Of a stretch of DNA of 64,000 nucleotides, positions 3,055 through 64,000 are shown piece by piece. The translations under genes were made by a program, and so were the position numbers. How positions within the stretch are numbered: position 1 is the stretch's first letter; each line of letters opens with the position of its first letter. The notes beneath the pieces are model-generated. The model worked only from the letters and a program-made list of their open reading frames with translations. It did not search any database and was not told the origin of the DNA. Source of the DNA: Desulfatiglandales bacterium (GTDB taxonomy: Bacteria; Desulfobacterota; DSM-4660; Desulfatiglandales; Desulfatiglandaceae); contig OY759599.1 of NCBI GenBank assembly GCA_963662465.1, positions 7,776,001 to 7,840,000 on the forward strand, read 5' to 3'.

Positions 3055-3260
3055 GGGTTTTGCCTTAATAAATTTACATATGAGTAGCATTCAGTTCTCG
3101 GTTGTGTCAATACCAAAGGGGCGCGAATCCGGATGTCCGCATAAATTTGAAGGTGGGCTTCAGATTCACCTTGCATATCGGGAAAAAAAGTGTAAATTGC
3201 TCTTGGGTCCCTACTTTGGTACCTATCATCGCTTACGTCAATTTTTTACAATGGTTCAAC

Positions 3261-5096
3261 ATGCAAAGACCCACATATTTCATCAGCCAGCCGATGCTCT
3301 ATCGGAACAACCAGAACTGGTATGGATACAAGAAAATCGACGGAAAAGTTGTTTTTAAGAAGAGCCTTCGAACCACCTCAAAACAGGAAGCCGAAAGCTG
3401 GCTAAGCCGTATGAAGGTTTCTCTTAAAGCAATTGAAGCGAGTAAATCTTTTGCCGACAGTGAATTTTTGCCGGGTCCTGCCATCGGCTGGCTCCATAAG
3501 GACGCGAAGGTCCTTCCTTACGATAAACCGGAGAGTTGGGAAGCCATCAAGAGATTGAATTGTCCCGTTCATATTGTTTTTAAGGACAATTGCCTGGGGC
3601 TCGTCGTCATAAACGGGGACATGCCTGAGGCGATGTTGCGTTCGGATGCGACCATCCCTATTATCGGCAGTTTGGCGGCCTTGCCCGCCGCCAATCTTGG
3701 CGACAGATCCTTTTGTGATGATCACGGAATAGACTATGCTTATTATACCGGGGCCATGGCGAACGGTATCGCTTCCGTCGAAATGGTGGAAGCCGTTGCC
3801 GACTGCGGATTGCTGGGTTTTTTTGGATCGGGGGGGCTTGATCTTGGGGAAATTGGAAGCGCCATTGACCGGCTGACGGAGAGATGTCCGGATAAGCCTT
3901 TCGGATTTAATCTGATACACAGCCCCAACGAGCCGAAGTTGGAAGCGGATACGGTTCAGCTATATCTGGATCGAAATATCCGGCTTGTGGAGGCGGCCGC
4001 CTTTCTTGACGTTACCCTGCCATTGGTGCGATACCGGGTTTCGGGTATTTCACGTGACGATACGGGGCAGGTGGTGACCCCGAATCACGTCATCGCAAAA
4101 TTATCGAGAGAGGAAGTGGCGGAAAAATTTCTCTCTCCGCCACCGAAACATTTTGTCGATGCACTGGTATCCTCCGGTGAACTCAGCTGTGAACAGGCCC
4201 GGATGTGTCTTGAAATCCCCCTGGCCCAGGATATTGCCGCCGAAGCCGATTCGGGGGGACATACGGACAATCGGCCGTCGATGACCCTTTTCCCCACCAT
4301 CCTGGCCCTCAGAGATAGATTGCAGGCGGTATTTAATTTCGCCCAGCCTTCCAGAATCGGGCTGGGCGGCGGGATATCCACCCCATGGTCCGCCGCCGCC
4401 GCCTATGCCATGGGGGCGGCCTTCATTGTGACCGGATCGGTCAACCAGGCCTGTGTTGAGTCGGGCGCCTCCGATGATGTTCGTCAAATGCTGGCTGAGA
4501 CCCGACAGGCGGATGTGGCAATGGCGCCCGCCGCGGACATGTTTGAAATGGGGGTAAAGGTCCAGGTCCTCAAAAGAGGCACCATGTTTGCCATGAGGGC
4601 CGCAAAACTCTATGAGTTATACCGGAATTATGGCGCCATCGAAGAGATCCCCGCGATTGAACGGGAAAAAATTGAAAAATCCATACTGAGATGTTCCTTT
4701 GAAGAGGCCTGGCACGAAACAAAATCCTTTTGGCGATATCGTGATCCCGGGGAGATTGAAAGGGCTTCCACCAATCCGAAACATAAAATGGCGCTCATTT
4801 TCCGTTCATATCTCGGCCGCGCCGCTGTTTGGGCGCGAAACGGCGATGTTTCGCGTAAAATCGACTATCAGATATTTTGCGGACCTGCCATGGGCGCCTT
4901 TAATGAATGGGCCAAAGACAGCTTTTTGGCAATTCCTGAAAACCGTAAAATTGCAACGGTTGCCTTGAATATTCTTTATGGGGCTGCGTTTTTAAGACGT
5001 TGCAATTACATTCAAAATATGGGGATTTCTCTTCCTGAAAAACTCAAAAGGATAAAACCCCTTCAATTAGGCCAGGTTTTGGAGTACCTGAAGTGA
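3261..5096 (+). CDS. pfaD: PfaD-family trans-acting enoyl reductase of a PUFA/PKS synthase, with an atypical N-terminal extension
   Basis: GAMANGIAS, EADSGGHTDNRP, APAADMFEMGVKVQVLKRGT and DYQIFCGPAMGAFN motifs. Start uncertain (ATG 3261). Confidence 0.92.
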   Translation: MQRPTYFISQPMLYRNNQNWYGYKKIDGKVVFKKSLRTTSKQEAESWLSRMKVSLKAIEASKSFADSEFLPGPAIGWLHKDAKVLPYDKPESWEAIKRLNCPVHIVFKDNCLGLVVINGDMPEAMLRSDATIPIIGSLAALPAANLGDRSFCDDHGIDYAYYTGAMANGIASVEMVEAVADCGLLGFFGSGGLDLGEIGSAIDRLTERCPDKPFGFNLIHSPNEPKLEADTVQLYLDRNIRLVEAAAFLDVTLPLVRYRVSGISRDDTGQVVTPNHVIAKLSREEVAEKFLSPPPKHFVDALVSSGELSCEQARMCLEIPLAQDIAAEADSGGHTDNRPSMTLFPTILALRDRLQAVFNFAQPSRIGLGGGISTPWSAAAAYAMGAAFIVTGSVNQACVESGASDDVRQMLAETRQADVAMAPAADMFEMGVKVQVLKRGTMFAMRAAKLYELYRNYGAIEEIPAIEREKIEKSILRCSFEEAWHETKSFWRYRDPGEIERASTNPKHKMALIFRSYLGRAAVWARNGDVSRKIDYQIFCGPAMGAFNEWAKDSFLAIPENRKIATVALNILYGAAFLRRCNYIQNMGISLPEKLKRIKPLQLGQVLEYLK

Positions 5097-8000
5097 AAAC
5101 GATAAAAAATAACAAAAAAAACGCTGCGATAACCGGATGTGAACCGATTGCCGTCATTGGCATCGGTTGCATTTTCCCCCGGGCGAACAACCATGGCGCC
5201 TACTGGGCCAATCTTAAAAACGGCGTGGATGCCATAAGGGATATCCCTGAAGGACATTGGCGGATTGACGACTACTATTCCGCCGATCCTTCTTCCCAGG
5301 ACCATACCCATGCAAAGCGGGGCGGTTTTTTGTCTCCCATTGATTTTGTTCCCCTCGAATTCGGCATTACCCCCAATGCCATCGAGGCCACGGACACCTC
5401 TCAACTGCTCGGCATGGTCGCGGCCAAACAGGCGCTTCTTGACGCAGGGTATAATGATGCGGACCGTTACGACAAGGATCGCGTCAGCGTCATCCTCGGC
5501 GTAACGGGCGCTTTGGAATTGACCATCACCCTCGGCGCCCGCCTGGGCCATCCCAAATGGCGAAAAGCCCTGAGGGATGAAGGGTTGGACGACGCCCTTT
5601 CGGCTAAGATCATTAACCGTATCTCGGAACAGTATGTCCCCTGGCAGGAAAATTCCTTCCCCGGTCTTTTGGGAAATGTGGTGGCGGGCCGGATCGCCAA
5701 TTATCTCGATCTGGGAGGGACCAACTGTGTCGTGGATGCCGCATGCGCCAGCTCTTTTTCCGCCATACACCTGGCCATCATGGAATTGCAGACGGGAAGG
5801 GCCGACATGGCGATCAGCGGCGGCATTGATACCTTTAACGACGTTTTTATGTACACGTGCTTCGGCAAAACCATGGCCCTTTCTCCCACCAGCGATGCCA
5901 AACCCTTTGACAAGGATGCGGACGGTACGATTCTGGGGGAGGGTATCGGCATTGTGGTGTTAAAATGCCTTAAGGATGCAAAACGGGACAAAGACAACAT
6001 ATACGCCGTCATTCGCGCCATCGGCACGTCCAGTGACGGAAAAGGAAAAGCCATCTATGCGCCGAGCGCACAAGGCCAGGTCAAAGCCATTCGCCGGGCT
6101 TACCGACTGGCCGATGTCGACCCTTCCACCATCGATCTGCTTGAGGCCCATGGCACCGGGACAAAGGTCGGCGATGCCGTTGAGGTTAAAGCGATTACCG
6201 AAGTGTATCAAAATGGCGCCGGCGCGCCCTGGTGCGCCATCGGTTCCGTAAAATCCCAGATCGGTCATGCCAAAGCCGCCGCCGGGGCCGCCGGATTGAT
6301 CAAGGCGGCCCTTGCCCTCCATCATAAAGTTCTGCCGCCCACCATCAAAGTGACAACCCCGACGCCGGCCCTTCGCGACAACAGTCCGTTTTACATCAAT
6401 CAGGTTCCCAAACCGTGGGTGAGGCGCCCTGAACATCCCCGACGGGCGGCAGTAAGCGCTTTTGGATTTGGCGGAAGTAATTTTCACTGCGTGCTGGAGG
6501 AATATGACGCCGAAAAAACCGCTTCCGATTTTGATGGCGCCACTGAAATTCTGGCTGTTTCCGCCGACACGCCGAAAGGTCTTATGGGGGCGCTGGATGG
6601 GATTCACCCCGGATCATCATGGGAAGACCTTTCGAGGTTGTTTAAAAAGATGAGAGCCGGGTTTAATGCGCAACATCCCTATCGATTGACTGCCGTCATC
6701 AAGGAAGACGACGATATGGACGCCCTCATGACGCGCATCGGAAAAACCCTTGAAAGCGAGCCCAACGATTGCCGATGGTCCCTGCCGGAAGGGGTCTATT
6801 TCGGTCTGGACGCGTTCAAGGGTAAGCTGGGATTTCTCTTTCCCGGGCAGGGATCTCAATATGTGGGGATGCTTCGGGAGATGAGTTGTCAGTTTCCGCA
6901 AATGCTCTCGTCGCTGGAAGCGGCCGACCTGGCCTTACGGGAAAAAACGCCATTGAAAACCCGTATCAGCGATATCATTTACCCGCCCTATGCCTTTACT
7001 GAAGACGAAAAGAAAGCCCGGCAGCTGGCCCTCAGGTCAACGGATATGGCGCAGCCGGCCATCGGCGCTGTAAGCGCTGGGCTTTGTAAGGTGTTGGCGT
7101 CTTTTGGGGTCAGGCCCGATGTTGTGGCGGGCCACAGTTATGGAGAAGTCGTAGCGCTTTTTGCTGCCAAGATCCTGGATGAGCAATCCCTCTTTGATAT
7201 TTCCGTACTCCGTGGGATGCTCATGGATTCGGGCAGGTCGGACGGGGGTGGCATGGTTGCGGTCATTGCGTCCTTGCGGAAGGTCGAAGCGGTTCTTCGA
7301 GAAACAGGGCTTGATGTTGTGATTGCCAATAAAAACGCGCCGAACCAGGTGGTCCTTTCAGGGGATAAACCTGATTTGGAAAGGGCGAAGGTGGAATTCA
7401 AAAAAAGGAAAATCCCATGCAAATCGCTTCCCGTGGCCAATGCGTTTCACAGCAGGGCCGTGTCGGATGCAGCGGGTGAGTTTCTGGAAGGGCTTAAAAA
7501 GATTGCCTTTTCAAAGGGGGAGATCCCTGTTTTTTCAAACACCACCGGCAGGAAATATTCTGCAACCGCCGGGGCCGCCCGTGAGCTTCTTGCGAACCAA
7601 CTGGCGAAACCCGTTGATTTTATGTCGATGATTCAAAACATGTACGCGGACGGTGTGCGAACCTTCGTGGAAGTGGGTCCGGGCGCCGTCTTGAAGGGGC
7701 TTGTGAGTTCAATCCTCGGCGACAAAGCGCATGTTTGCCTGGGCCTGGATAGCCACTCTTCAAAGCAATCGGGCGTTGTTGCTTTTGCACGTGTTCTGGC
7801 CTATCTATCCGCCCAGGGATATCCGGTTGATCTCAACCAGTGGAACATGAATCTTAAAGACGCGGAGCCGTTTGCCTCAATTAAACCAAAGATGACGGTG
7901 CCCATATCAGGCGTCAACCATGTTTCCAAAAGAGTATTGACGCCGCCTGAACCCAAGACAAAGCTGATACAATCCAAACCACAACCTGGGCCCGGAACAC

Positions 8001-49676: not shown

Positions 49677-50228
49677 ATGAGAAAATCGGATATCGATAAA
49701 ATTTTATATATTCAACTCATTATTGCCCGTATGGGTGAAAAAGAGTTGATGAACTGGTGGAACACAGATATCGCCTATGAAATGGGAGGAGCTGATTTTT
49801 TGAAAAGACTCCTGGGAGATACCCTCGCACCTCTTTCAGCGGGAGAAGGCATTTTAAAGGCGGCCCAATTAAAAGAGACCCAACTCATCAGCGAGATGCC
49901 GGACAACCAAAAAGTTTATACGTTGTTCAGGCCGGAACCTGAAGTGGATATCGCCATTGAAGAGCGCCTCAGGCATTTCAAACGTTATCCTGAAGACCTG
50001 CCGGAAGAAATTTCACAGATCCTGGCGCCTGAAAAGGATTGGGCGACACAAGAGCTTGCTGATTTGATCTCAACAGAGAAGTATCCCGAATTCACTGGGA
50101 CAAGTTTTGGTAGAGAGATCGAAAAGACAATTGGACTCGGGATGTCTGATGTCATGATAAGCCTTGCCTCAATCATAAAAACGAATGAAAAAGGCAACTA
50201 TGGTTTGTCCTACTACAGAGGGGCATAA
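49677..50228 (+). CDS. brxE: BREX type 6 protein BrxE
   Basis: IDKILYIQLIIARMGE...WWNTD...GGADFLKRL; first gene of the brx operon. Confidence 0.75.
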   Translation: MRKSDIDKILYIQLIIARMGEKELMNWWNTDIAYEMGGADFLKRLLGDTLAPLSAGEGILKAAQLKETQLISEMPDNQKVYTLFRPEPEVDIAIEERLRHFKRYPEDLPEEISQILAPEKDWATQELADLISTEKYPEFTGTSFGREIEKTIGLGMSDVMISLASIIKTNEKGNYGLSYYRGA

Positions 50229-50229
50229 C

Positions 50230-51000
50230 GTGCCTCTTCCTGATTGTTATAAAATCGGGCATTCATCGGCCCTGAACAAAATAAGCGGACGATTGCCCGA
50301 AGGACGTGAATTTATAGCGTCCTTTGATATTTTCCTACCCGTTCCGGATAATTCCCGGAAAGCCTATATGAACCGATGGTATGGGAATGCCAGTGAACGA
50401 AAATGCAATGAACTGACCCGGCATTTCAATCAGAGATACATCCTCACACCTGAAAACTTCGAATCTCTTCGACAATATATACTAGGGACTTCCGGTGTGG
50501 ACTTTCCCTGGATCAATCATTTTTACATGCTATTGGATGACCCATACTATCGCTGGGCTGTTGCGGATTTCATACCTGACCGCTATCAAAAGGGGCTCAT
50601 GGAGATCCCCAGGTCCCGTTTTGATCAGGAGTTGAAAAAGCAGCTGCCGGATACAGTGGGCGCCGGGAGCCTTGCCAGATATGGCCAGAACCTGTTAACA
50701 GCCATTCGTGATAACGGCCTGCTCGAAGGAAAGGGAAAAAAGACCATTGTAAGTCCTGGTCTTTCTGTGAAGACAATGGCATTTATGCTTTACACCCTTT
50801 CTGATCTAGGGGTTGGAACTAATGAGTTTGATATGTCTCCATTGTTTTTATCTACCCTCAAAACACGGGATTTTTTGGTTCCCATTTTTTATGAAGGAGA
50901 ACAACTGGGTTACTGGGAATTTACAGGGGACCGTGAAAGGATAAAACTGAACCTGAATCAGCCGGGTCTCAACCATTGGCTGGAGGCGTGCATATTATGA
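50230..51000 (+). CDS. brxA: BrxA-like protein
   Basis: Position between brxE and brxB; DDPYYRW...LLTAIRDNGLL. GTG start inferred. Confidence 0.6.
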   Translation: MPLPDCYKIGHSSALNKISGRLPEGREFIASFDIFLPVPDNSRKAYMNRWYGNASERKCNELTRHFNQRYILTPENFESLRQYILGTSGVDFPWINHFYMLLDDPYYRWAVADFIPDRYQKGLMEIPRSRFDQELKKQLPDTVGAGSLARYGQNLLTAIRDNGLLEGKGKKTIVSPGLSVKTMAFMLYTLSDLGVGTNEFDMSPLFLSTLKTRDFLVPIFYEGEQLGYWEFTGDRERIKLNLNQPGLNHWLEACIL

Positions 51001-51611
51001 GTCTGGAATCTAGAATCGATGCGCTGAAAAAGGATCTGCTTAATCCCGCGGGGCCATGTATCAGCACCAATAGAAACTATCCATTTGCCCTTTTTCATTA
51101 CCCGCCACAGGAAGAATTTAAGATGCGGGCCAAATTGGTGGCGCTTCTGGATACCCTTCGCAGTAAGGGATGGACGATTCTGAATGTGGATTTGTTTTCC
51201 ACTCTTGTTGAATACTTGGGAAAACAAGAAGGAGGAGAGCTTATTGAGGCGCTTATCCAGGAAGAAAAACTCCAGTACAAGGCGAGTCGGAAAAATCATT
51301 CAATGCCCTTAAGTGTATTACAAAACAGTCTGGATGTATTTTTGAAAGACACAAAAGAATATCCCAAGGTTGTTTTTGACAGGATTATGGAAAAAACAGA
51401 GCATAGTGATGAGACGAAAACCGTTATCTTTCTATCCAGAATCGGAGCCTTGTACCCCTTTTATAGAACTTCATCATTATTACGCTACTTAGACAAGGGC
51501 ATTCGAGTCCCCACAATAGTACTCTATCCCGGGGAGCGAACGGAACAGTACTACCTCTCTTTTATGGGCGAAATGGATGCCGACAGAGACTATCGCCCCA
51601 GGATCTATTAG
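50997..51611 (+). CDS. brxB: BrxB (DUF1788)
   Basis: NYPFALFHYPPQEEF, GALYPFYRTSSLL, LYPGER...LSFMG...DYRPRIY. Confidence 0.85.
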   Translation: MSLESRIDALKKDLLNPAGPCISTNRNYPFALFHYPPQEEFKMRAKLVALLDTLRSKGWTILNVDLFSTLVEYLGKQEGGELIEALIQEEKLQYKASRKNHSMPLSVLQNSLDVFLKDTKEYPKVVFDRIMEKTEHSDETKTVIFLSRIGALYPFYRTSSLLRYLDKGIRVPTIVLYPGERTEQYYLSFMGEMDADRDYRPRIY

Positions 51612-52993
51612 TGAAGGAGAAAATATGAGCCGGATCAAAGATGTCTTTTTTAGGAACATCGAGGAAAACATCGCGCCTGTAATCTATTTTCATCAGCTTG
51701 AACCGGAGGTGGCCGCCCAGGAAGTGGCGGAATACATATTCACCACCCGCTCTGCATCCCATGGCAACCGGTTGGGAGGAATCCATGAGCAGATGGTGTC
51801 CCTTTTAAATCAGATATCCATTGCCATCGATGAGGGACACAAACTTCCTGCCTCCTGGATATCCGGTTTTTTTGGTTCCGGCAAGTCCTCCTTTGCAAAG
51901 CTCTTTGGATTAGCCCTCGATCATATGGAACTCCCCAATGGGACCACCATGGATAAGGCCCTCATGGAAAGGGATGATACTCCCAACTTCAAAGAACTCC
52001 ATGAGGCATTCGACAAATTAAGCCGTCAGATAAACAGTATGTCTGTGATCTTTGATATTGGCACAGCAGCAAAGAATAATGAGAGCACACCCCATACGGT
52101 TTACCGGCATATTCTGCAAAAGCTGGGATATTCACGCCATGATGGGGTGGCTTACTATGAGGTCGCCCTGGAAGATGAGTCCCGCTACGATGAATTTTTA
52201 AAATTGTACAATGAGCAGTATCAAAATCCCTGGGCGGAAAAATGCAGCTCTGCCTTGGCGCCGCAGCAGTTCCGGGCAATTTATAAAAAAATCTTCCCTG
52301 AACAGGATGACCTTCTGGAGACCAGCACCTTTAACCTGAACTCGTTAAATATCCAGAATATGGTCTCCAATATATACAAGGTTGTAGCGCGACGGGCTCC
52401 GGGAAAGACAATTTTTGTCGTGGTGGATGAGGTCTCTCAATACATTGCCAAAGATCAGAATAAGATGCTGGACCTCCAATCCTTTGTTTCAGAGATAGGG
52501 GGTCGGGTTAAGCCCGGTAAAAGTCCCCTGTGGTTACTGGTTACCGGCCAGGAAAAGCTGGAAGAAGAGAGCAACGAATCAGTCCTTTTTAAACTCAAAG
52601 ACCGTTTTCCTCCCGCCCTGCGGGTACATCTCGACAGGGCCAACGTCAAGGAGGTTGTCAGCCGCAGGCTCCTGAAAAAAACAGCTGGGTCTGAACTGGA
52701 AACCATTGTTTCGGATTCCAATTTAGATAGCCTTAAACTCCATGGATACGAATGCGCAAACGTAACAAAAGAGCAGATCATTGAACATTATCCCTTGCTC
52801 CCGGGGTATATTTCCCTGTTTATGGATATTACGCAATGCATCAGGAGCCGCTCCTCACGTACCCAGAGTGATGCCGGCGGTGTACGATCCGTGCTGAATA
52901 ACATCTGGGACCTGTTTAACCGTGAACCTGTCACCCTTAAGGATCGCCCTCTCGGTAAGCTGATGACCCTTGATATGCTCTACGATATTATCG

Positions 52994-54914
52994 CAGGGTG
53001 AATTTATTCTTCCGAATTATCCAAATAAAATATAAAAGTTGCGCTACATTATGGACAGAAACCCTCGGATGGTGTATATACTGTGACAGGCACCAAACCA
53101 ATTCGGGGTTTAAATTCTTGAACGTTAAGCAAGTCCGCATTCAAATAGTCCGCCCGCTTGAAGAACAACGCTTTCAGCATCTGATGCAGTCGCATCATTA
53201 TTTGGGCGCTCTTCCCAAGATCAGCGAAACCCTCTGGTATACAGCTAGACTAAATAGTGAGTGGATTGCGCTTGTCAGTTTTTCTGCTCCCGCTTTGAAA
53301 TGTACACCAAGGGACAGCTGGATCGGATGGAATTTTCGCCATCAATACGATCGACTGAAACTGGTAACCAATAACAGTCGTTTTCTAATTTTGCCCGAAT
53401 GGCATATTCCGAATCTCGCATCCCGTATCCTTTCATTATGTCGGAAGCGAATGCAGGCTGATTGGCAGGAGCGTTTCGGGCATCCGGTTGTACTCCTGGA
53501 AACCTTTGTGGACCCAAAGCAATTCCACGGAACCGTATATCGAGCGTCTAATTGGATATATGTTGGTAAAACAAAGGGTTTTCATCGAACTCGCCAAGGC
53601 TACAGCGATAAAGCGGATTCACCGAAAATGGTTTTTCTTAAACCATTGGTTTCCAATGTTCAAGCACTGTTATCCCGACCTGTTCTCAAAAAACCATATC
53701 TTACAGGAGGTTACAAAATCATGCTCAGTGCGGAACATATGAAATCTCTACCCGACTTTTTTGCTCAAATTCCCGACCCGCGTCGATCCCAGGGACGACG
53801 TCACAGGCTCTCCACTGTTCTGGCCATTGCCACCGCCGCAACACTGTGCGGAATGCGCGGTTATCTGGCGATATCCGATTGGGTAAATGGTCTTGGACAA
53901 AAAGCCCTTGAGCGTTTCCGTTGCCGATATGAAAATAAGCGCTATGTAGCTCCCAGTCAGTCTACTATCCGTGATGTTCTGGTTCGCGTTGACCCCACAG
54001 AACTCGACAAAGCTCTCCAGCGTTGGAATCTGCTTTACGGTGAACAGGACGAAAGCTTGGCCATCGATGGAAAAACCATGTGTAATGCCATCGATGAACA
54101 AGGTTATCAGACTCACATCATGAGTGCTGTCGGCCATCAAACTAAGACCTGTTACACCCAAAAAAAGTCGGTTCTCTCCCTGTAGAAGGCAAAGACGAAC
54201 TCAAGCGAACCAATGAAATCAAAACGGCTGCCCCTTTACTGGACGCGATCGATATCGAAGGCAAAGTCATTTCAGCTGACGCACTGCTAACCCAAAGGAC
54301 TTTTGCTAAATATTTGGTCGAGCAACGCAACGCCCATTACCATTTCATCGCCAAAAACAACCAGCCCACATTACTTCAAGACATTTCCCTGTATTTTGAG
54401 GGCTGCAACGATCCTGATTTCATACAACACGATGCTCCCGATCATGGTCGCATCGAAGTGCGCAAAATATGGACGACTACCGAACTTAACCTATACCTGG
54501 ATTTCCCGTATGTCGGCCAGGCTTTTATGATCCAGAGAGAAGTTACAAACAAGAAAACCGGTAAATGCACAGTTGAGGTTGCTTACGGCATAACGAGTCA
54601 ATCACCTGATCAGGCGAATCCCGAACGTGTACTTTCTATCAATCGCGGTCACTGGAGCATTGAAAACGAGTGCCATTACATCATCGACTGGAACTACGAC
54701 GAAGATCGAAGCCGAATAAGAACCGGCAATGGTCCTGAAAACATGACCAGGCTGCGTAGATTCGCGGTGGGCGTCATTAAGGCGAAAGGCGTTCGCAGTG
54801 TAGCCCAGAAAATGCGCCAGCTCACGCAGAACGTAAGGGGTGTCTTCGACTATCTCAAGATGACCAAAAATTCAGTGCCCCAAGCGTGATACCTGTTAGA
54901 ACAAATTTACCGTG
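52994..54914 (+). mobile_element. ISAs1-family insertion sequence, copy 2 (1921 bp)
   Basis: Same TIRs as copy 1; 10-bp TSD GATATTATCG at 52984-52993 and 54915-54924. Confidence 0.95.
53118..54889 (+). CDS. DUF4338-ISAs1 transposase, probable -1 frameshift at 54160-54167
   Basis: The -1 frame after CYTQKK reads VGSLPVEGKDELKRTNEIKTAAPLLDAIDIEGKVISADALLTQ and joins the 54314-54889 ORF. Confidence 0.88.
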
Positions 54915-57900
54915 GATATTATCGGGTCAAGCATTGACAGTGATGTACAGTTGACCCTCCACAAGGTGTTTGAAAAACAAGGACCGGACACATGGGAAAC
55001 CAAGGTGATTAAAGCGATTTCACTCTTGGAGATGAATGCTGAACAGCTGCCTGTGCAGTTGAGGCTTCTTTCCTCTCTTCTCTACCCGGAACTTGGCGCC
55101 CCTTCCGTTGAAGACGAGGTGAAAATCGCTCTCGAAAACCTAAACAAGGATAATTGGATTCAGTATCATGAAAAGTATGGCTGGCGAATTCAAAACAATG
55201 CAGCTCAGGACTGGAGCCGGCAGAAGAGTGAAATATCCATCCCCTCCAGTCGAATCGTTGAGCTTCTTACGGATTTGCAGAAAGATATTGTATCCACTGT
55301 GAATCAACCTACCCTCAATGGCGCCCGCTTTCCCCTGGAATCCTATTGGGGGCTCGAACAGAAAATCACAGGTAAAAACGACTCCACCAAGGTGAAACTC
55401 TGTTTTCACTGGGTTAAAAATACCAGTAAACGCAAGGATCTGGATCAATGGATAAACCTGAGCCGACAGCATAAGAGGATGTTTCATTGGGTATCCGGTG
55501 ATCCAAGCGACCTGGAAAATAAGGTGAGAGAATATGAGCGTTCGCAGAAAATGATACTCCGTTACAAAGGTCAGGGACAGCTGCAACCCCTGCAGCAGCA
55601 GCTCATGTACCAGGAACAGGCGGAAAGTGAACGTCTTTGGGAGGTGATCAAAAAGGATCTCAGACAGGTTTGGATTCGCGGAGTTTTCTTTTTTGATGGC
55701 GACATTTTTGAAATGAGTCAGGCCGGCGTCTCCTTTGAGAACGCATTAAAGACCGAAATAGAAAAGAGGATGGTGCAGCTGTTTCATAAATTTTCTCAAG
55801 GCCATATCTCAATAACGGAATCAGATTATAAGCAGCTCCTGGAAAAGGACACTTCCGGCCTGGGGACCGTGTTTTTTGATGGGGATGGCGCCCTGGGGAT
55901 TGCACAGAACGACGCGGGACGGATCATTTTTAAGTGTGACGGCCAAGTTCCCCGGGAACTATTTCAATATCTCGAAGAAAGAACATACCTGACAGGGGAA
56001 CAACTGATCAAACATTTTGGCGCGGACCCGTTCGGCTATTCAGCCACAGTGGTTAAAGCCTCTGTTTTGGGGCTTTTACGGGAGGAACGACTTCGCGTTA
56101 GTGATCACAAAAAGAATGAAATCACCTCAATTCAGGACCCGGGGGCTAAATCCCTGTTTGAACAGCATCGGGAATTCCTTCGCGCGGAGATTGAAATCAA
56201 CAAGGACACCACTCTGACAGGAAGGGACAGGACCACCTTGCGCCGATTCTTTGAGGATTCCCTGGGCTTGACCCATGTGGACAGTGCATCGGATATACTG
56301 GCAGACCTGGTTTTTAAACACTTCCCCGAATGGAAAGATAAGGTGTCAGAGCTAAACAGCAAACTCGGAAGCCTCAATATTTCCGTTCCCGTGGAGATGA
56401 AAGAATTTAACAAGGCCTTAACCGCCTGTTTGGAAAATCGTCAAGTTCAAAAAACCCTTGAGCGGTTTAAGCGAAATCTCGATGTTATCCAGAAAGGTGT
56501 TGCCAGGGTAAAGGAGCTGGAGGAAAGCCTTAATGAGGATACTGAAAAAGAGCTGCGCCGGTTAAAAAACATACTGGAGGTGCAGGCGAAGCAGTTGGAG
56601 CAGGTGGGGGAAGCATCAGCCGTTCAAGGCTCCATTTCATTCCTTGAGAACCACATGCAGGGCAGTGCCCCCTGGCGGGGATATGCGGATGTAAAGCCCG
56701 GGGCCGAACAGATTATCGTCCAATACAAGCAGATAAGAAGGCTTTACAAAGATCAGCAGCAGGAGGAACTGGACAAGCAACTATCTCAAATTAAGCTAAG
56801 GCCAGATTTTGGGGGCCTTGATCAGGATAAACAGCAGGAGGTTTTACAACGCATCCGCAAGGTATTTGTGGATGTGGACGAAGATGCCGTACAGCCTCAG
56901 CTCTTGCTGATTAAGCAGACCCCGGACAGGATTCGGGAAGCGACATCCGAGGCCCACCTTTTTGTGGACCAGTTGGTCAATGAGGCTGCGGATAATGGAG
57001 AAGATTCTGAAAAAGATCCTCCCAAACCACGCGTGCATACCATACGCCTGGGTTTACGCAACAGGATTATCAGTGATACGGATGAACTGGAGCAGGTTCT
57101 TTCCAACTTAAAAGAGAAATGTCTAAAAGAGTTAGAGGCAGGCATAAAGGTAAGGTTTGAAGAATGACTGGGATACGGGAAACAACCAAGAGAAGCTTTA
57201 AAAATTGTGTCATCGCCATAAGAAACAGGCTGTTGGAAGACTTGGAGCAGGCCTGTTATCAGCGCTATTCCCTGAATGCAAAGGACCGCGGGAAAGTTCA
57301 ATTAACCTATCAGGAAGACCTCCACTACAAAAGGCTTTTTGCCTGGCTGGAAGATTCTGGAAGGTCCCATAAAGATTGGAAATCCAATTTAAAAGATTTG
57401 GTCAAAGAACGGGCCTACACCCTGACGAACCGTCTGGTTATTCTGATGCAGCTGGAATGCCGGGACCTGAGAAAGGTGAAACTCATCAGCCAAGGCATTG
57501 AAAAGTCGGCGTTTCGTACAGAGCAGGAGTTCTTTGTGGCCTTGACCCAGGGCGATGATCAGGGATTTGGTTTTATCCTCCAGCAGGTGTGGGATCAGTT
57601 GGCCCTGGAGCTTCCCGCACTGTTTGAATACAACGAGACCCACGAATGCGTGCCTATGCCAGGACCCACACTGCTTTGGCTGATCCAGGAGCTTAATCGA
57701 GATGATCTTCAAGAGGCCTGGAAGGATGACACCACGTTAGGCTGGCTGTACCAATTCTGGAATGACCCGGACCGTAAAGCCGTGGATGCAAAGCTCAACA
57801 CCACTTCCGGTAAAGTCGAAGCTCACGAAATTTCTGAAAAGACACAGCTTTTTACAGAGCGTTATATGGTTGAGTGGCTGGTGCAGAATTCCCTGGGAGC

Positions 57901-59708
57901 CCAATGGCTTGCAATTTGTGGGAAGCATGGCTGGATTCCTCGCGCCCAGGAAAAGATTGAGAAACTTGAAATCAGAAGAAAAGAGTGGAATCAAAGGATC
58001 GCAAATGAAGAGGTCCTTGAAACTGAGCCAATGCCAATCAACGGCGATGAAGAGCTTTGGAAATATTATGTGGCCCAGGACTTAGCTGAAGAAACTATTG
58101 AATCCGCTCCGTTATCTTTAGACAAGGTTAAGGTTCTCGATCCTGCAATGGGGAGCGGACATTTTTTGGTCTATGTGTTTGATTTCCTATGGGAGCTCTA
58201 CCAGGACCAGGCCCGTCTTCAAGGGAAAGAGTACAATTCCAAACAGACAATAGACTGGATACTGAATAATAACCTTCACGGGATCGATATTGATAACCGA
58301 GCGGTCCAGATAGGGGCGGCGGCGCTTTACATTAAGGCCCAGGAGAATATGCCTGGATACAGGATCGAAGAGCTGAATCTTGTGGCTTCTGATTTGGGCT
58401 TGAGCCATCTTGAAAAAGACAATCCGGCAGTTCTTGGATTCATCAAAATCCTTGAACAAGAGCTGGGGTTGCACCAGGAAATCAGCCTTGAAATTATCAA
58501 TGCCCTGAAAGGGGCTGAGTATCTTGGTTCTTTGCTTCAAGTGGAAAAAGAGATTGAGAGGATAGTCAAGTACTATCATGCTTTCACTATGACTAAAGAT
58601 ATTAAGGAGGTGCAGGAAAAAATCCTTCAGGCGTTAACCGGTTTTATTCATGATCATGATCAGGGGGAAGACTTAGGCGTCAGATCATTGGCTGAGCAAA
58701 TGGGGAAAGGACTTAGACTTATTGAGCTGTTGGGAAAAAAATATGATGTGGTTGTGGCCAATCCTCCCTATTTAGGAATTGCAAAAGCGAGAAAGGAAAT
58801 TGCAGATCAAATTCAATTGCATTATCAGGATGGCAAGGCTGATCTCTATTCTATTTTTATGTTGAGGTCCTTTCAACTTGCACAAGATTATGGAAAAGTT
58901 GCAATGGTAACTCTTCGCGGTTGGATGTTCCTCTCCCAATTTGAAGATGTTCGCATCAAATTGTTAAGAGAGTCAAATTTCATATCTTTTGGAGACCTTC
59001 ATCTTGGAGCTTTTAATGATATGAAAGATGTTTCTGCAACAATGTTTGTTTGTCAGAAATCCAATCTTAAAAGTCTATCCACTAAAATTGTTAGACCAGT
59101 TCCAAAACTTCAGATTCGTAGAGATCAGCATCAGGTTGGTAAAAATGTAAGAGGGCTCATTCGCGCAGATGAAGTCTACACCTTCCTCCAATCCCGTTTT
59201 GCCGAAATCCCCGGTTCGCCAATAATCTATTGGTGGCCCGAAGAGTTTCGCCAGACCTATTTGAAGGCCCCGAAATTGGGTAACCTATCTGATGTTAGAC
59301 AAGGTTTGGCGTCTTCTTTGAATAATCGGTTTCTAAGAAGACCTTATGAGATAGATTTACAGAGTCTTGAGCTAAATCCTCCAAACTTTGTTGATCAAAA
59401 TGTGGATTATTTCAAATGGCAACCATATGTGAAAGGAGCTTCCGGAAAACGATGGTATGAGGGGCTTGTTGATATAATTATTTGGCAGGGAAATGGTCTA
59501 GAAGTAAAAGCATATGCAAGTAAATTATATGGTTCAGCATCAAGATCCCGGGCGGCCACCCAAAATCCCCCACCTGTGGCCACTTGAAAATCCCCCACCT
59601 AAAGAGGTTCAAAATGTAGATTTTTGATCTTCGGCTCAATTCACAAAATGGTGACAGGACGTTATACCATCTCCCAATGCAATTTAATTGAATTGGGAGG
59701 AAGAAAGG

Positions 59709-62393
59709 ATGAACGTTTTGAAGCCGGACAAGAAATCTACCATCATTACCCTACTTAAAAATGGCGTTGGTCAGCGTGAAGTACATCGTAAGACCAATAT
59801 TGACAGGAAAACGATCCGAAAATACGCAAAAGAAAGTGGCTTTTTACCCGAAGATTCCGACTTAAATTCAAGATCCCCCACCCTGGCCACCGGGGCTGAT
59901 TGCATCATCAGTGAAAATCCCCCACCCCGGCCACCGGTAAACAGCACATTCAAGGGAGAAAAACGGGCGATTCCACTCCATGCCAGATCAGCATGTGAGC
60001 CTCACCGAGAATGGATTGAAAAGCAGGTGAAGCTCGGGAGGAATGCCGTAGCGATTTACCAAGATTTGGTCGAGCGATTTGCCTTTACCCACAAATACAA
60101 CAGCGTAAAGCGGTTTGTAAGGGGACTGAGAAAAGAGGACCCCAAGCAATTCGATCGATTGGAGTTTTTACCAGGGGAAGAGGCTCAGGTAGACTATGGC
60201 ACGGGAGCCAAAACGCTTCATTCGACAGGGAAATACCGTAAAACTCGTCTCTTTATAATGACGTTGAAATACTCCAGGCGCTCATTCCGGAAAGTAGTTT
60301 GGCAATCAAGCAAAGAAACATGGGCAAAACTTCATGAGGAGTCATTTCGATATTTCGGAGGTTGCCCCCAATATGTGGTTCTGGACAATTTGAAAGAGGG
60401 CGTCATCAAACCGGATCTTTACGAACCTGAATTGAACACCGTCTATGCGGCCATGCTGGAGCATTACGGGGTTGTTGCAGATCCGGCAAGAGTTAGAGAC
60501 CCAAACCGGAAAGGGACTGTTGAAAATGCCGTACAGCATACCCAAGACACAGCTTTAAAAGGTCGCACATTTGAATCGATTGAACGACAGAATGAATGGC
60601 TTATGCACTGGGAGGAACAATGGGCTGCTCAGCGGATACACGGGAGAACCAAGCGACAGGTTGAAGAAATGTTTCAAGAAGAAAAACCGTACCTTAAACA
60701 ACTTCCCTTAACTGCATTCAGCTATTTCAGCCAAGAAATCCGTACGGTCTGGGATGACGGCGCCATTCAGGTGGGGAAATCCTATTATTCAGCCTTGCCG
60801 GCGCCCCTTTATACAAAGGTTATTGTCAGGATTTATGACAGAGAGATTGAGATTATCAATCCTGTAACAATGGAGATTTTCCGCAGGCACGCCAAGAACA
60901 GCAGGCCGGGATCTGTCAATATACCGCCGGAAGATAGGATTTTTAATCCTTCACGTCAAACAACGTATCTCTTTGCCAAAGCAGAGAGCATTGGTCCCGC
61001 AACTTTAAAATTATGCAAGGTCTTGTTTGAGGAAGAAGGCAGAACCGGTCAAAGACGAATACAGGGGATTGTCAACCTGGTCCGACATTATGAGGCCCGT
61101 TACGTGGAACAGGCCTGCATCAAAGCCAATAATGTGGGGCTGCGCAATTACAAATCCATCCGCAACCTTGTCAAAACGTTAGCCGAAAAAAACCAGGAAG
61201 AAAAGGATTCTGAGGGGCTGATTCAGGAACATAAATTAATACGCCCTCCGGAAGATTATGCTGCATTCTGGGAGCAGCACGCCGCACAGACACCGGTTTC
61301 GGAGGAAGGAGCAAACCGTTTTGTCATGCCCAAAGAGCAACTACCCGCAGTTTGGAAAAATGCAAGCTGGGAGAGAGTGATTGATGTTTTTGGCCTGGAA
61401 GTTGATGGAAACCGCCGCTGTAAGGCCAACGAGACATGGATCAAATCGCCTTTTACAGGCGAAAAAACTGCTTCGCTGCATTTGAACCTGACGGAGAATA
61501 TCTTCAAGGATTTCAGCAGTGGCCTGGGGGCGAAAGTCGGTGTACTCAATTTCTGCCAGGATCTTTTAGCGCTGCGAGGCCAGGCAATGAATTGCTATGA
61601 AGTTGCCTCCTGGATGGTGGAAAATGGAATTTCAAATTTGGATATACGTTCACGCGAGGTTAAAAACCATGTTCCTGAACTCAAAAAACCGAAAGAAAAC
61701 AAACCGATTCAAGTGGATTTAAGGCGTTTTGTACAGCCGCAACATCCAGAATTAAAACATCGACAGGTTTCAGAGGCGACATGTCGCTATCTGGGATGTG
61801 GTTTTCTCCCGGAAAGGCCGAATGGAAACAAACAGTCACCTCTCAATGGCCGGTTGGTGTTTCAAGTGCGGGGAATGTCCGGCGCTATACTGACACATGT
61901 CGGTCGTGCATTGACACTGCAGCAAGAAAAAACGAATGGGAAATACTGGAGCTTTCCGTTCTTCAAAAAACTGGAAATATACAACCAGGACAAACTGTTA
62001 TCAGATGCTTCAGCAAAGGATCAAGTTCAGCGGCTTGGCTTGGTGCTGGTAGAAGGTTTTTTTGATGTGGCAGTTTTGGTCGAATCGGGTTGTTTGAACG
62101 TCGGAGCACTGATGGGGTCGCACATGACCGAACAACAGGCAGCCCGAATAAAGTTAATCAGCTCACACATTGAGATTCCCAAAATTACCGTTTTTTTGGA
62201 CAGGGATGAAGCTGGGAGGATTGGCGCACAAAAAGCAGTTACTGTGCTGCGGAAAAATGGGTTTTCAGCCGAGGCCTTTGACTGGAACCAGACCCTTGGG
62301 TCGTCATTTGTGAAAATCCCAATGGCCGTTATGGATCCAGGCGATATGTCGTTAAGGCAGCTAAAGTGGTTGAGAAAAAAGGGAAACATTTGA
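59709..62393 (+). CDS. istA: IstA DDE transposase fused to a DnaG-like primase (TOPRIM) module
   Basis: HTH (IDRKTIRKY); DDE (QVDYG, VLDNLKEGV, KGTVE); then SPFTGEKTASL...FKDFSSG, GRLVFQV...VGRAL, VLVEGFFD, LMGSHMT, FLDRDEAG, DPGD. Confidence 0.88.
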   Translation: MNVLKPDKKSTIITLLKNGVGQREVHRKTNIDRKTIRKYAKESGFLPEDSDLNSRSPTLATGADCIISENPPPRPPVNSTFKGEKRAIPLHARSACEPHREWIEKQVKLGRNAVAIYQDLVERFAFTHKYNSVKRFVRGLRKEDPKQFDRLEFLPGEEAQVDYGTGAKTLHSTGKYRKTRLFIMTLKYSRRSFRKVVWQSSKETWAKLHEESFRYFGGCPQYVVLDNLKEGVIKPDLYEPELNTVYAAMLEHYGVVADPARVRDPNRKGTVENAVQHTQDTALKGRTFESIERQNEWLMHWEEQWAAQRIHGRTKRQVEEMFQEEKPYLKQLPLTAFSYFSQEIRTVWDDGAIQVGKSYYSALPAPLYTKVIVRIYDREIEIINPVTMEIFRRHAKNSRPGSVNIPPEDRIFNPSRQTTYLFAKAESIGPATLKLCKVLFEEEGRTGQRRIQGIVNLVRHYEARYVEQACIKANNVGLRNYKSIRNLVKTLAEKNQEEKDSEGLIQEHKLIRPPEDYAAFWEQHAAQTPVSEEGANRFVMPKEQLPAVWKNASWERVIDVFGLEVDGNRRCKANETWIKSPFTGEKTASLHLNLTENIFKDFSSGLGAKVGVLNFCQDLLALRGQAMNCYEVASWMVENGISNLDIRSREVKNHVPELKKPKENKPIQVDLRRFVQPQHPELKHRQVSEATCRYLGCGFLPERPNGNKQSPLNGRLVFQVRGMSGAILTHVGRALTLQQEKTNGKYWSFPFFKKLEIYNQDKLLSDASAKDQVQRLGLVLVEGFFDVAVLVESGCLNVGALMGSHMTEQQAARIKLISSHIEIPKITVFLDRDEAGRIGAQKAVTVLRKNGFSAEAFDWNQTLGSSFVKIPMAVMDPGDMSLRQLKWLRKKGNI

Positions 62394-62450
62394 TTTCCAT
62401 CGCCACGTTCTCGGTGGCGCGGAAATTTGTTTAACCTAAACGGCCATCCG

Positions 62451-62926
62451 AAGGAATCGGGCTTATGTATAAGCGAATATGGTCGGACTTTTTGAATCTC
62501 GTTACACGATAATCATAGGGCTTGATTGTTTTGGAGGTGAAAATGGGAGGCGGAAAACGTATGGGAGCCAGTCGAAAAAAGAAATCAGATCATTTGAGAC
62601 GTGAACTGCTGACAATTCGATTGCCGAAGTGGATGATTTCACAGCTCAAAAACAAATGTGAAATTGGCTATTTGATCGAGGATCAATTAAGGAATCGGGC
62701 TTATGTATAGGCGAATATGGTCGGACTTTTTGAATCTCGTTACACGATAATCATAGGGCTTGATTGTTTTGGAGGTGAAAATGCGAGGCGGAAAACGTAC
62801 GGGAGCCGGTCGAAAAAAGAAATCAGATCATTTGAGACGTGAACTGCTGACAATTCGATTGCCGAAGTGGATGATTTCACAGCTCAAAAACAAATGTGAA
62901 ATTGGCTATTTGATCGAGGATCAATT
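62451..62926 (+). repeat. 238-bp tandem duplication inside the IS21 element
   Basis: 62451-62688 versus 62689-62926; four substitutions seen. Confidence 0.95.
62543..62710 (+). CDS. Truncated, degenerate copy of the small basic protein
   Basis: MGGGKRMGASRKKK...; GGAGGT RBS; C-terminus replaced at the duplication junction. Confidence 0.55.
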   Translation: MGGGKRMGASRKKKSDHLRRELLTIRLPKWMISQLKNKCEIGYLIEDQLRNRAYV

Positions 62927-62978
62927 GAGGAAGATAGATTTTTTGGATATCCCGGATGACTATGACATTGATAACTGA
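62781..62978 (+). CDS. Small basic putative DNA-binding protein (RGGxRxGAGRK plus RHH-like segment)
   Basis: MRGGKRTGAGRKKKSDHLRRELLTIRLPKWMISQLK; GGAGGT RBS. Confidence 0.7.
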   Translation: MRGGKRTGAGRKKKSDHLRRELLTIRLPKWMISQLKNKCEIGYLIEDQLRKIDFLDIPDDYDIDN

Positions 62979-63001
62979 AATCGAGAAAGGAGAAACTGAA
63001 T

Positions 63002-63775
63002 ATGCCGATGTCAATGCAGGAAATAGAGAAAAGTCTAGGAACGCTACGTTTAAGCGGTATGCGAGCAACATTAGAAACCCGAGTGATACAGGCAAATCAA
63101 GGAGAATCTTCTTTCCTGGAAGTCTTTTCATGCCTGCTTCAGGATGAGTTAGATTACAGGCGGTCGTGCCTGATAGAACGTAGATTTAATGCTTCCGGTC
63201 TTCGTGAGAGAAAAACATTGACTGAGTTTGATTGGGGCTTTAATCCAAGACTTCCAAAAAAGGAAATTTTTGAACTGGTGACCATCAAATTTATACACAA
63301 CGGTGAAGACGCACTCCTGATCGGTTCTCCCGGGACTGGGAAAAGCCATATCGTTAAAACAATTGCTCATGCTGCAACACAGGCATGCCATCAGGTTGTT
63401 TATCGTGAGGCCCATACTTTCTTTGAAGATGTCTTCGAAGCAGCCCAAACAGGGAAGACAAAAAAAATAACAAAGCTTTTTTCAGAAGCAGACTTGCTAA
63501 TAATAGATGATCTTTTCCTGAGAAAAAGGGTCCCTGAACATGCGGCAGATGATCTTCTTGATATCATACTGAATCGTTATTCCAAAAGAAAAAGTACACT
63601 CATAACATCAAACCGTCCGGTGGAGGACTGGGGTAAACTGCTCAGAGACAATGCCGCATCCTCTGCGATCCTTGACAGGTTGCTCCACCGAGGCCATTTG
63701 CTCAAATTTGAAGGAAAAAGCTACAGGCTAAAGGAGGCTGCAGAAAAACTTGCCATAGGGAAGAAAAAAGAATAA
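63002..63775 (+). CDS. istB: IstB AAA+ helper ATPase
   Basis: LRLSGM, FDWGFNP, GSPGTGKSH, LLIIDD, TSNRP, AILDRLLH, GKSYRL. Confidence 0.95.
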   Translation: MPMSMQEIEKSLGTLRLSGMRATLETRVIQANQGESSFLEVFSCLLQDELDYRRSCLIERRFNASGLRERKTLTEFDWGFNPRLPKKEIFELVTIKFIHNGEDALLIGSPGTGKSHIVKTIAHAATQACHQVVYREAHTFFEDVFEAAQTGKTKKITKLFSEADLLIIDDLFLRKRVPEHAADDLLDIILNRYSKRKSTLITSNRPVEDWGKLLRDNAASSAILDRLLHRGHLLKFEGKSYRLKEAAEKLAIGKKKE

Positions 63776-64000
63776 AGTGTAACCGTTCTGTCGCTGAAGA
63801 TCTTTCCAATGCCACGGTCAAGATCCTACATGGCCACCTTCACAGGTGGGGGATTTTGGGGTGGCCACAAGTGGGGGATTTTGAAGTGGCCATCCGGGTC
63901 AAGAACAATAAAATCACAAGATAAGTACTTCAAACAAGGCCTAGCCTTCAGCTACATTGGTACTAATGGCTTTCTATGTCGTCTGCGAAAATTCAAATCT

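Follow-up and report, generated by a model that had tools for sequence, protein, structure and literature searches.

The window analysed here is a stretch of 64,000 nucleotides from a Desulfatiglandales bacterium (GenBank assembly GCA_963662465.1, contig OY759599.1, positions 7,776,001-7,840,000 of the forward strand), and towards its right-hand end lies an insertion sequence (IS) of the IS21 family that splits pglX, the methyltransferase gene of a BREX (bacteriophage exclusion) locus. Like IS21 and IS5376, the element encodes a DDE transposase, IstA, followed by an AAA+ helper ATPase, IstB; unlike them, its IstA carries about 360 extra C-terminal residues. Judged by sequence and by predicted fold, these residues are a DnaG-type primase module, with a zinc-binding-domain (ZBD) fold that lacks zinc ligands and an RNA-polymerase domain (RPD) that contains a TOPRIM domain. 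The comparisons described below suggest that the IS21 subgroup to which this element belongs starts part of its own DNA copying. The features in question are collected in Table 1.

Table 1. Features of the IS21-family element and its immediate surroundings, in window coordinates
Feature	Position	Strand	Remarks
5' part of pglX (BREX methyltransferase), split by the element	57164..59546	+	PADLOC PglX 2.4e-208, model positions 7-825 of 1428
Whole IS21-family element, 4352 bp	59547..63898	+	Ends from flank alignment of three identical copies
Left terminal inverted repeat	59547..59600	+	Terminal CCCGGGCGGCCAC and two direct GGCCAC-N3-AAAATCCCCCAC units 25 nt apart
Conserved hairpin	59671..59699	+	Just upstream of the fused gene's Shine-Dalgarno sequence; RNAalifold, 54 non-redundant left ends
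istA-primase fusion gene	59709..62393	+	894 aa, stop codon within coordinates
IstA part	59709..61202	+	aa 8-505; helix-turn-helix domains, DDE core, beta-barrel, helical C-terminal domain
Two internal copies of the terminal-repeat unit, within the istA coding region	59868..59937	+	SPTLATG and NPPPRPP, different frames
Linker, about 40 aa	61203..61331	+	aa 506-548; conserved QEHKLIRPPEDYAAFW motif, then a variable indel-rich stretch
DnaG ZBD-like fold without zinc ligands (predicted)	61332..61622	+	aa 549-645; AlphaFold2 block, pLDDT mostly 74-93; Foldseek 2au3, 1d0q
DnaG-type RPD (predicted)	61755..62390	+	aa 690-901
TOPRIM within the RPD	62040-62282	+	aa 785-865
238-nt unit in tandem duplication, 98% identical	62451..62926	+	Between the fused gene and istB
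Small ORFs, one per 238-nt unit	62522..62710 and 62760..62978	+	Ribbon-helix-helix-like
istB, AAA+ helper ATPase	63002..63775	+	NF038214 IS21_help_AAA 6.5e-63, above the 200-bit cut-off; PF01695 7.2e-51
Right terminal inverted repeat	63841..63898	-	Two repeat units

The element and its fused transposase gene

An open frame runs unbroken from 59688 to 62393 on the forward strand, giving 901 aa when counted from the TTG at its beginning, and it is this frame that supplies the residue numbers used throughout. All of the aligned homologues start at MNVLKP, and for this reason the ATG at 59709 is taken to be the true start; the single ORF of about 894 aa that an earlier reading of the letters alone (the sequence-only reading) had placed at this locus is borne out to its exact coordinates by the starts of the homologues. 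The same reading had recognised an IstA with an intact DDE triad, and this too holds. The NCBIfam model transpos_IS21 (NF033546) matches aa 21-340 at E 1e-77, exceeding its 160-bit cut-off; the solved IstA of IS5376 (8q4d/8b4h) aligns with aa 100-360, 8q4d at 5.5e-24; and D169, D233 and E279, which from their spacing and from familiar motifs we take to be the triad, are invariant in all 21 aligned homologues. The linker that follows IstA falls below 50 in per-residue confidence (pLDDT) in an AlphaFold2 (AF2) model of the full-length protein, a model which, with an overall pLDDT of 55.5 and a predicted template-modelling score of 0.26, was used for rough domain limits only, and supplied the secondary structure for the subdivision of the IstA part.

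The ends of the element were set by comparing three copies, 100% identical to each other, in the 8.16-Mb genome from which the window comes (three end fragments are also present there), and contigs from other runs (X1, X4, X8 and X11) break off exactly at 59547 and 63898. Both the three-copy comparison and these loose contig ends place the primase module inside the element, as the sequence-only reading had it. Each end carries two of the GGCCAC-N3-AAAATCCCCCAC units, at the same 25-nt spacing and inverted in orientation between the ends; the unit hardly varies across the family, and the layout of the left-end repeats is found again in the distant relatives L101, L068 and L059. The target-site duplication had been described as clean. 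This is true of the two other copies, with perfect 5-bp duplications (TCCAC and CCGTC), and not of the window copy, where the left flank has TCAAGA-T and the right flank TCAAGA-A, to be read as 6 bp plus an extra base or as 7 bp with one mismatch. Three fully identical copies, two of them within perfect 5-bp duplications, indicate that the element is active. In run X1, the contig of the element (59570-62502) has a word depth of 225 against about 34 for its flanks, and the assembly holds three full copies; depth of this kind is not copy number.

Terminal inverted repeats with repeated units resembling IstA sites, short target duplications and multiple genomic copies are all traits of the IS21 family. 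The elements described here are larger than is usual for that family, at 3.7-4.35 kb against roughly 2-2.7 kb, and they end in CCCGG...CCGGG, unlike the many IS21 members with TG...CA.

The fused form of the transposase is shared by many relatives. A protein search with aa 540-901 returned 558 proteins at E <= 1e-3, and 96 of the 120 best listed matches are 813-948 aa long; where they bear a name at all, it is no more than "transposase" or "IS21 family transposase". From a scan of loci that took one genome per species, 104 relatives were obtained and 80 loci kept, 15 of them cut by a contig end. Both halves lie in one ORF of at least 872 aa at 59 of the 65 uncut loci, the remaining six being broken copies, and istB is found 25-70 nt downstream in 75 of the 80. 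The passage from IstA into the primase without a stop, which the sequence-only reading had reported for this one gene, is in this way a property of its homologues as well. The junction is also bridged without gaps by independent contigs, with no differences in organism A (59570-62502) and with 25 substitutions in organism B (60678-61753). In two metatranscriptome libraries there are contigs over both halves, 90-99% identical; this does not show transcription.

An artefact, whether through read-through, assembly error or a passenger gene in decay, would be one alternative to a genuine fusion, and its probability is negligible: nothing was found in its favour, three identical copies are present, contigs of other runs cross the junction, the frame is open at 59 of the 65 uncut loci, and the ratio of non-synonymous to synonymous substitution (dN/dS) in the module, given in full below, is 0.176.

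Among the hosts is the cultured strain NaphS2, in which at least ten loci were found; others include Desulfatiglandales, Desulfobacteraceae, Desulfobulbaceae, Desulfospira, Syntrophobacteraceae and Desulfoferrobacter. Beyond the Desulfobacterota, the fusion is found in several metagenome-assembled genomes of Acidobacteriota/Terriglobia, and relatives are also carried on single short contigs assigned by binning to Anaerolineales, Neomarinimicrobiota and Treponemataceae. The distribution of the family is sparse. Among 401 sampled genomes of the phylum of the window, the fused form was seen in only two, the window's own and one other, and the IstA half, at E <= 1e-90, only in those two and as one fragment. 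The fused form was not found in six genomes of the window's own family, an absence that fits horizontal spread. From these comparisons the element is assigned to a widespread IS21 subgroup with a covalently attached primase module.

The primase module and its relatives

The dnaG model TIGR01391 matches aa 705-868 over model positions 184-337 at E 5.5e-21, below its full-length cut-off, while Pfam Toprim_2 and Toprim_4 both match aa 785-865. The nearest solved proteins by sequence are the RPDs of DnaG from S. aureus, Aquifex and B. subtilis, with E values of 2e-7 to 2e-6. An AF2 model of aa 540-901, made from 41 aligned sequences, has a mean pLDDT of 83; its top Foldseek match is the combined ZBD and RPD of the Aquifex primase (2au3, E 1.5e-16), followed by DnaG catalytic cores, the primases of phages T4 and T7 (gp4) and the isolated zinc-binding domain of Bacillus (1d0q). 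The primase motifs quoted in the sequence-only reading, namely SPFTGEKTASLHL...FKDFSSG, GRLVFQVRG..ILTHVGRAL, VLVEGFFD, LMGS, FLDRDEAG and DPGD, are all present. Of the domains that it had named for profile or structure comparison with the C-terminal half, Toprim and the ZBD fold were found, and the zinc ligands of zf-CHC2 were not; no Pfam match to zf-CHC2 is reported in the window protein, though the fold of the domain is predicted. The helicase (DnaB) interaction domain of DnaG is absent as well: the protein ends about 35 residues past the last TOPRIM motif, only positions up to 337 of the 414 in the dnaG model are matched, and the fold matches are confined to the ZBD and the RPD.

TOPRIM domains are not restricted to primases, and the one described here might instead belong to a nuclease or other strand-processing enzyme that would, for example, cut the non-transferred 5' strand in the manner of TnsA of Tn7 and serve cut-and-paste transposition or resolution. 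TOPRIM nucleases exist in OLD, RNase M5 and related proteins, IstA itself cleaves 3' ends only, and the TOPRIM-only folds of RecR and RNase M5 do appear among the structural matches of the module, weakly, at E 5e-3 to 3e-2 over about 100 residues. Primases, however, are the best matches by many orders of magnitude, in sequence as well as in fold; the module also retains the whole N-terminal subdomain that is specific to the RPD of DnaG, together with the ZBD fold, and the basic residues that contact the nucleoside triphosphate (NTP) are conserved. A nuclease role is accordingly rated as improbable. PADLOC places two further matches on the primase domain (61845-62342, aa 720-884), to RT_UG29 at 7.5e-19 and to RTasDnaG-like at 9.3e-7. 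DnaG-like modules also occur fused to defence-associated reverse transcriptases.

To compare active sites, 21 fused modules were set against 14 housekeeping DnaG proteins of the same phylum at columns conserved in DnaG. Retained in all 21 are R692, R722, G739, R740, Y753, P757 and K760, along with the TOPRIM residues E789-G790-x-x-D793 and D838-x-D840-x-A-G843; K752 is retained in 18, and D883, of the DPGD motif, is invariant in 41 sequences. The acidic residues that the sequence-only reading had noted as intact in this one protein are therefore invariant among its homologues too. We take the retained arginine, lysine, tyrosine and acidic residues to be the basic ridge and the NTP-contacting metal ligands of DnaG, and the catalytic centre of the module looks intact. 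The module is like DnaG in these residues and in its combination of ZBD fold and TOPRIM-containing RPD; it is unlike DnaG in that the zinc ligands, the DnaB-binding domain and part of a basic motif are gone, in being fused to a transposase, and in falling in a separate clade. The genome of the window retains a dnaG-like gene of its own, in a frame of 632 aa.

Selection was estimated by the method of Nei and Gojobori (NG86) from 223 pairs, with dS between 0.05 and 1.2, among 54 distinct full-length genes. Median dN/dS is 0.142 for IstA, 0.324 for the linker, 0.118 for the ZBD-like part and 0.171 for the RPD. For the primase module as a whole, the half in which the sequence-only reading had wanted dN/dS measured, it is 0.176, close to the value for IstA, and purifying selection on the module appears to be about as strong as on the transposase. 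The most constrained part of the module is the ZBD-like fold, free of zinc as it is.

That constraint would also fit a binding surface, and with it a module that no longer polymerises and has been kept for binding DNA or single-stranded DNA (ssDNA), for targeting to replication forks or single-stranded regions, or for stabilising the transpososome. The loss of all the zinc ligands and of part of the basic cluster, and the lack of a helicase-binding domain, would be readily accommodated by such a role. It is nevertheless considered unlikely: the three acidic TOPRIM clusters and the arginine, lysine and tyrosine residues shared with DnaG do not vary (21/21 and 41/41), which is hard to explain without catalysis, and the stand-alone relatives of the module are also mostly zinc-less, yet are found in the position of plasmid primases.

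These relatives emerged from an exhaustive profile-free search with the module, which gave 2765 matches at E <= 1e-3, of which 70 reach E <= 1e-30. Numerous among them are stand-alone proteins of 350-450 aa that match over the whole module at 35-45% identity, with the same set of domains and the same C-terminal end; most are zinc-less, and a few distant ones retain CPFH...CFGC. Unlike the fused modules, each has a gene to itself, and neither IstA nor IstB is encoded close by. A maximum-likelihood tree was built from 69 sequences, with support from the Shimodaira-Hasegawa-like approximate likelihood ratio test (SH-aLRT). The fused modules form one clade in it (SH-aLRT 98), which also takes in P0122, a protein of 383 aa that may be a split or miscalled copy. 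This clade is nested in a 47-sequence clade of stand-alone proteins (SH-aLRT 100), and housekeeping DnaG makes up a separate one (SH-aLRT 100).

A scan of metagenomes seeded with stand-alone members yielded 80 loci. The gene is fused, with istB downstream, at 48 of these; three more are fused or broken, three are cut and then followed by istB, and 22 uncut and four cut stand-alone genes have no match to IstA or IstB in the locus. When the neighbours on nine long contigs were scanned with Pfam, mobilisation genes were found beside the stand-alone gene on eight, and a tyrosine integrase instead on the ninth; a MobA/VirD2 or TrwC relaxase is present on seven, and some carry MobC/NikA, some a type IV coupling protein, some ParA and some Rep3 initiators. 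In genome G279 the stand-alone gene is part of a three-copy region near the pilin gene of a type IV secretion system. Collections of plasmid and phage records contained no match to the window module at E 1e-10, and a stand-alone relative matched only distant annotated DNA primases in them, at 24-29% identity.

Because it adjoins genes for relaxases, MobC and coupling proteins, the stand-alone family is assigned to mobilizable plasmids and to integrative and conjugative elements (ICEs), and the tree gives the primase module a single origin within this relaxase-linked family. We infer that its source was a plasmid or ICE primase acting on circular ssDNA. In conjugation the transferred single strand is recircularised, and synthesis of its complement is primed by dedicated primases, whose position is the one that the stand-alone proteins occupy; the primases TraC of RP4, Sog of ColIb and PrmN1 of NBU1 are comparable. 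To our knowledge, none of the stand-alone family has been characterised.

Accessory features and the insertion site

Copies of the terminal-repeat unit (AAAATCCCCCACC..GGCCAC) are also found within the element, at 59868-59893 and 59912-59937, some 320-390 nt inside the left end, and a copy is likewise found inside, at about +320 nt, in all three of the distant relatives examined (L101, L068 and L059). A constraint at the level of the DNA is suggested, with internal IstA sites shaping what is, in the protein, a linker.

The strongly conserved 13-nt box GGCGACAGAACGT (about 59652-59664) lies upstream of the hairpin that precedes the fused gene; five of the eight predicted pairs of that hairpin show compensatory changes. 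The hairpin, together with the box, probably serves to control expression of the transposase. Apart from this hairpin before the ribosome-binding site, no ssi-like hairpin for recognition by a primase was found in the left non-coding ends of the aligned elements.

The small ORF of this lineage, duplicated here with the 238-nt unit and not remarked on in the sequence-only reading, is a further difference from IS21 and IS5376. For these ORFs the ESM Atlas yields leads of the ribbon-helix-helix type only, with scores below 0.9. The unit is single in the closest relatives (L034-L036) and in organism B and is lacking in more distant ones; in run X4, a contig joint skips 238 nt, the length of one unit. 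A 76%-identical homologue is found at about 30 places in the genome, and at the one place examined (L010, 1556-1765) it lies downstream of the istB of a different IS21-like element. IS21 elements may have in this small ribbon-helix-helix-like ORF an accessory gene so far undescribed. One of the identical copies of the element (L002, C1:6818096-6822449 of the same genome) is inserted just downstream of an 88%-identical homologue of the unit (L008), and the sequence flanking it on the right is similar to what lies before istB in the window element; this copy may have inserted into another IS21-like element.

On the far side of the window copy, pglX continues in frame from 63899. The BREX locus as a whole, which is type-1-like (BrxA, BrxB, BrxC and PglX; 50185-59546 and 63899-64000), is disrupted twice. 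A 1.9-kb insert, with a 395-aa ORF (DruA-like plus DDE_Tnp_1_assoc) and a 191-aa DDE_Tnp_1 fragment, divides its brxC into two parts, 51577..53001 (model positions 2-462) and 54912..57167 (model positions 464-1205); pglX is the second gene to be split. In NaphS2, the relative L101 sits within a repeat array with a period of 64-65 nt (3040-3271 and 7022-7383), with four units on one side and six (or seven) on the other. The array looks like a CRISPR array, in which case L101, too, would be a copy lodged in a defence locus, as the window copy is in BREX.

A proposed role in transposition

IS21 is listed among the circle-forming families, presumably with copy-out-paste-in transposition, in a preprint (10.1101/2023.06.07.543989). 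On that pathway, IstA would nick one end of the element and link it to the opposite end of that strand, and the freed 3'-OH of the donor would be extended across the element, regenerating the donor and displacing a circularised single strand. The displaced circle, having no 3'-OH, would need a de novo primer to become double-stranded; a primase tethered to IstA at the abutted ends could lay down that primer, after which the double-stranded circle would be inserted by IstA and IstB. Priming of the displaced circle would call for no helicase-binding domain, and the element would become independent of assembly of the PriA/DnaB/DnaG primosome of the host. The plasmid ancestors presumably carried out the same task on the strand recircularised after conjugation.

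That the tethered primase primes the complement of the single-stranded IS circle that copy-out displaces is put here at a probability of roughly 0.5. Held with somewhat less assurance, and as a tentative proposal, is the broader statement that the subgroup consists of self-priming DDE insertion sequences in which a zinc-independent DnaG-like primase, acquired from a conjugative or mobilizable plasmid, primes the single-stranded transposon circle. Priming on ssDNA gains in plausibility because the module appears to derive from relaxase-linked plasmid primases, and the same origin points to the displaced single-stranded circle rather than to the strand-transfer intermediate, one of the two sites of priming that the sequence-only reading had suggested.

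An active primase could also serve a different step, for instance restart or gap repair at the site of insertion or replication of the donor after excision, or could bring a benefit unrelated to transposition. The same conservation of the active site would be seen in each case, and tethering shows only that the enzyme acts where IstA is. Gaps left by DDE insertion already carry 3'-OH ends, however, and by the established mechanism need no primer, and a single origin combined with strict linkage to IstA and IstB over wide divergence favours a role within the transposition cycle. Service at another step is therefore given little likelihood.

Several points weigh against priming of the displaced circle by the module. 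All four zinc ligands, conserved as C/H/C/C in 14 of 14 housekeeping DnaG proteins, are replaced by S/T/D/S in 20-21 of the 21 fused modules, a loss that the sequence-only reading had overlooked; the fused modules have also lost the basic cluster YDRFR as well as the N, S and E of KYLNSPET. Since the ZBD is needed for template recognition and initiation in the DnaG-type primases that have been studied, de novo priming may be impaired or altered. Most IS21 elements have no such domain, and the priming step is not generally limiting. The copy-out pathway is itself presumed for this subgroup, and the joint between 63898 and 59547 that a circle or tandem would contain was not seen in the contigs of four runs, contigs being prone to drop rare forms. 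The full-length AF2 model, with the low scores given above, is too poor to place the primase relative to the transposase.

Casposons, Polintons and Cas1-PrimPol fusions are known cases in which a mobile element or integrase comes with a DNA-synthesis enzyme of its own. They carry family B polymerases of the protein-primed kind, or PrimPols with an archaeo-eukaryotic primase (AEP) fold, together with Cas1 or retroviral-like integrases; we know of none among them in which a DnaG-type primase is fused to a bacterial DDE transposase. The sequence-only reading had been aware of no described IS21 with this architecture, and the full-text literature likewise gave no description of an IstA-primase fusion, with most subscription journals, ISfinder and TnCentral lying outside the scope of that search. 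PMC8649781, considered as a possible prior description, mentions IS21 and Toprim in unrelated passages. The element is firmly of the IS21 family, and the architecture of its transposase appears to be undescribed. Functional coupling of a primase to the replicative step of circle-forming insertion sequences has a parallel in the IS excision enhancer (IEE), a PrimPol-helicase which, according to the same preprint (10.1101/2023.06.07.543989), stimulates excision of copy-out-paste-in elements. Unlike the fused module, IEE has the AEP fold with a helicase, is encoded apart from the IS, and aborts transposition rather than serving it.

How circle-forming insertion sequences are replicated once the first strand has been transferred and before they integrate is poorly understood, and the host is usually credited with all of it. 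A primase kept on the transposase through long divergence and across several phyla amounts to a natural experiment, indicating that priming matters where and when IstA acts, and the fused IstA with IstB forms a compact two-protein system in which the priming step could be dissected with point mutants. Annotation of these proteins only as "IS21 family transposase" has made the fusion architecture invisible. The comparison also defines an uncharacterised family of zinc-less DnaG-like primases from mobilizable plasmids, and it shows a route by which a plasmid function in replication or transfer may have become part of a transposase.

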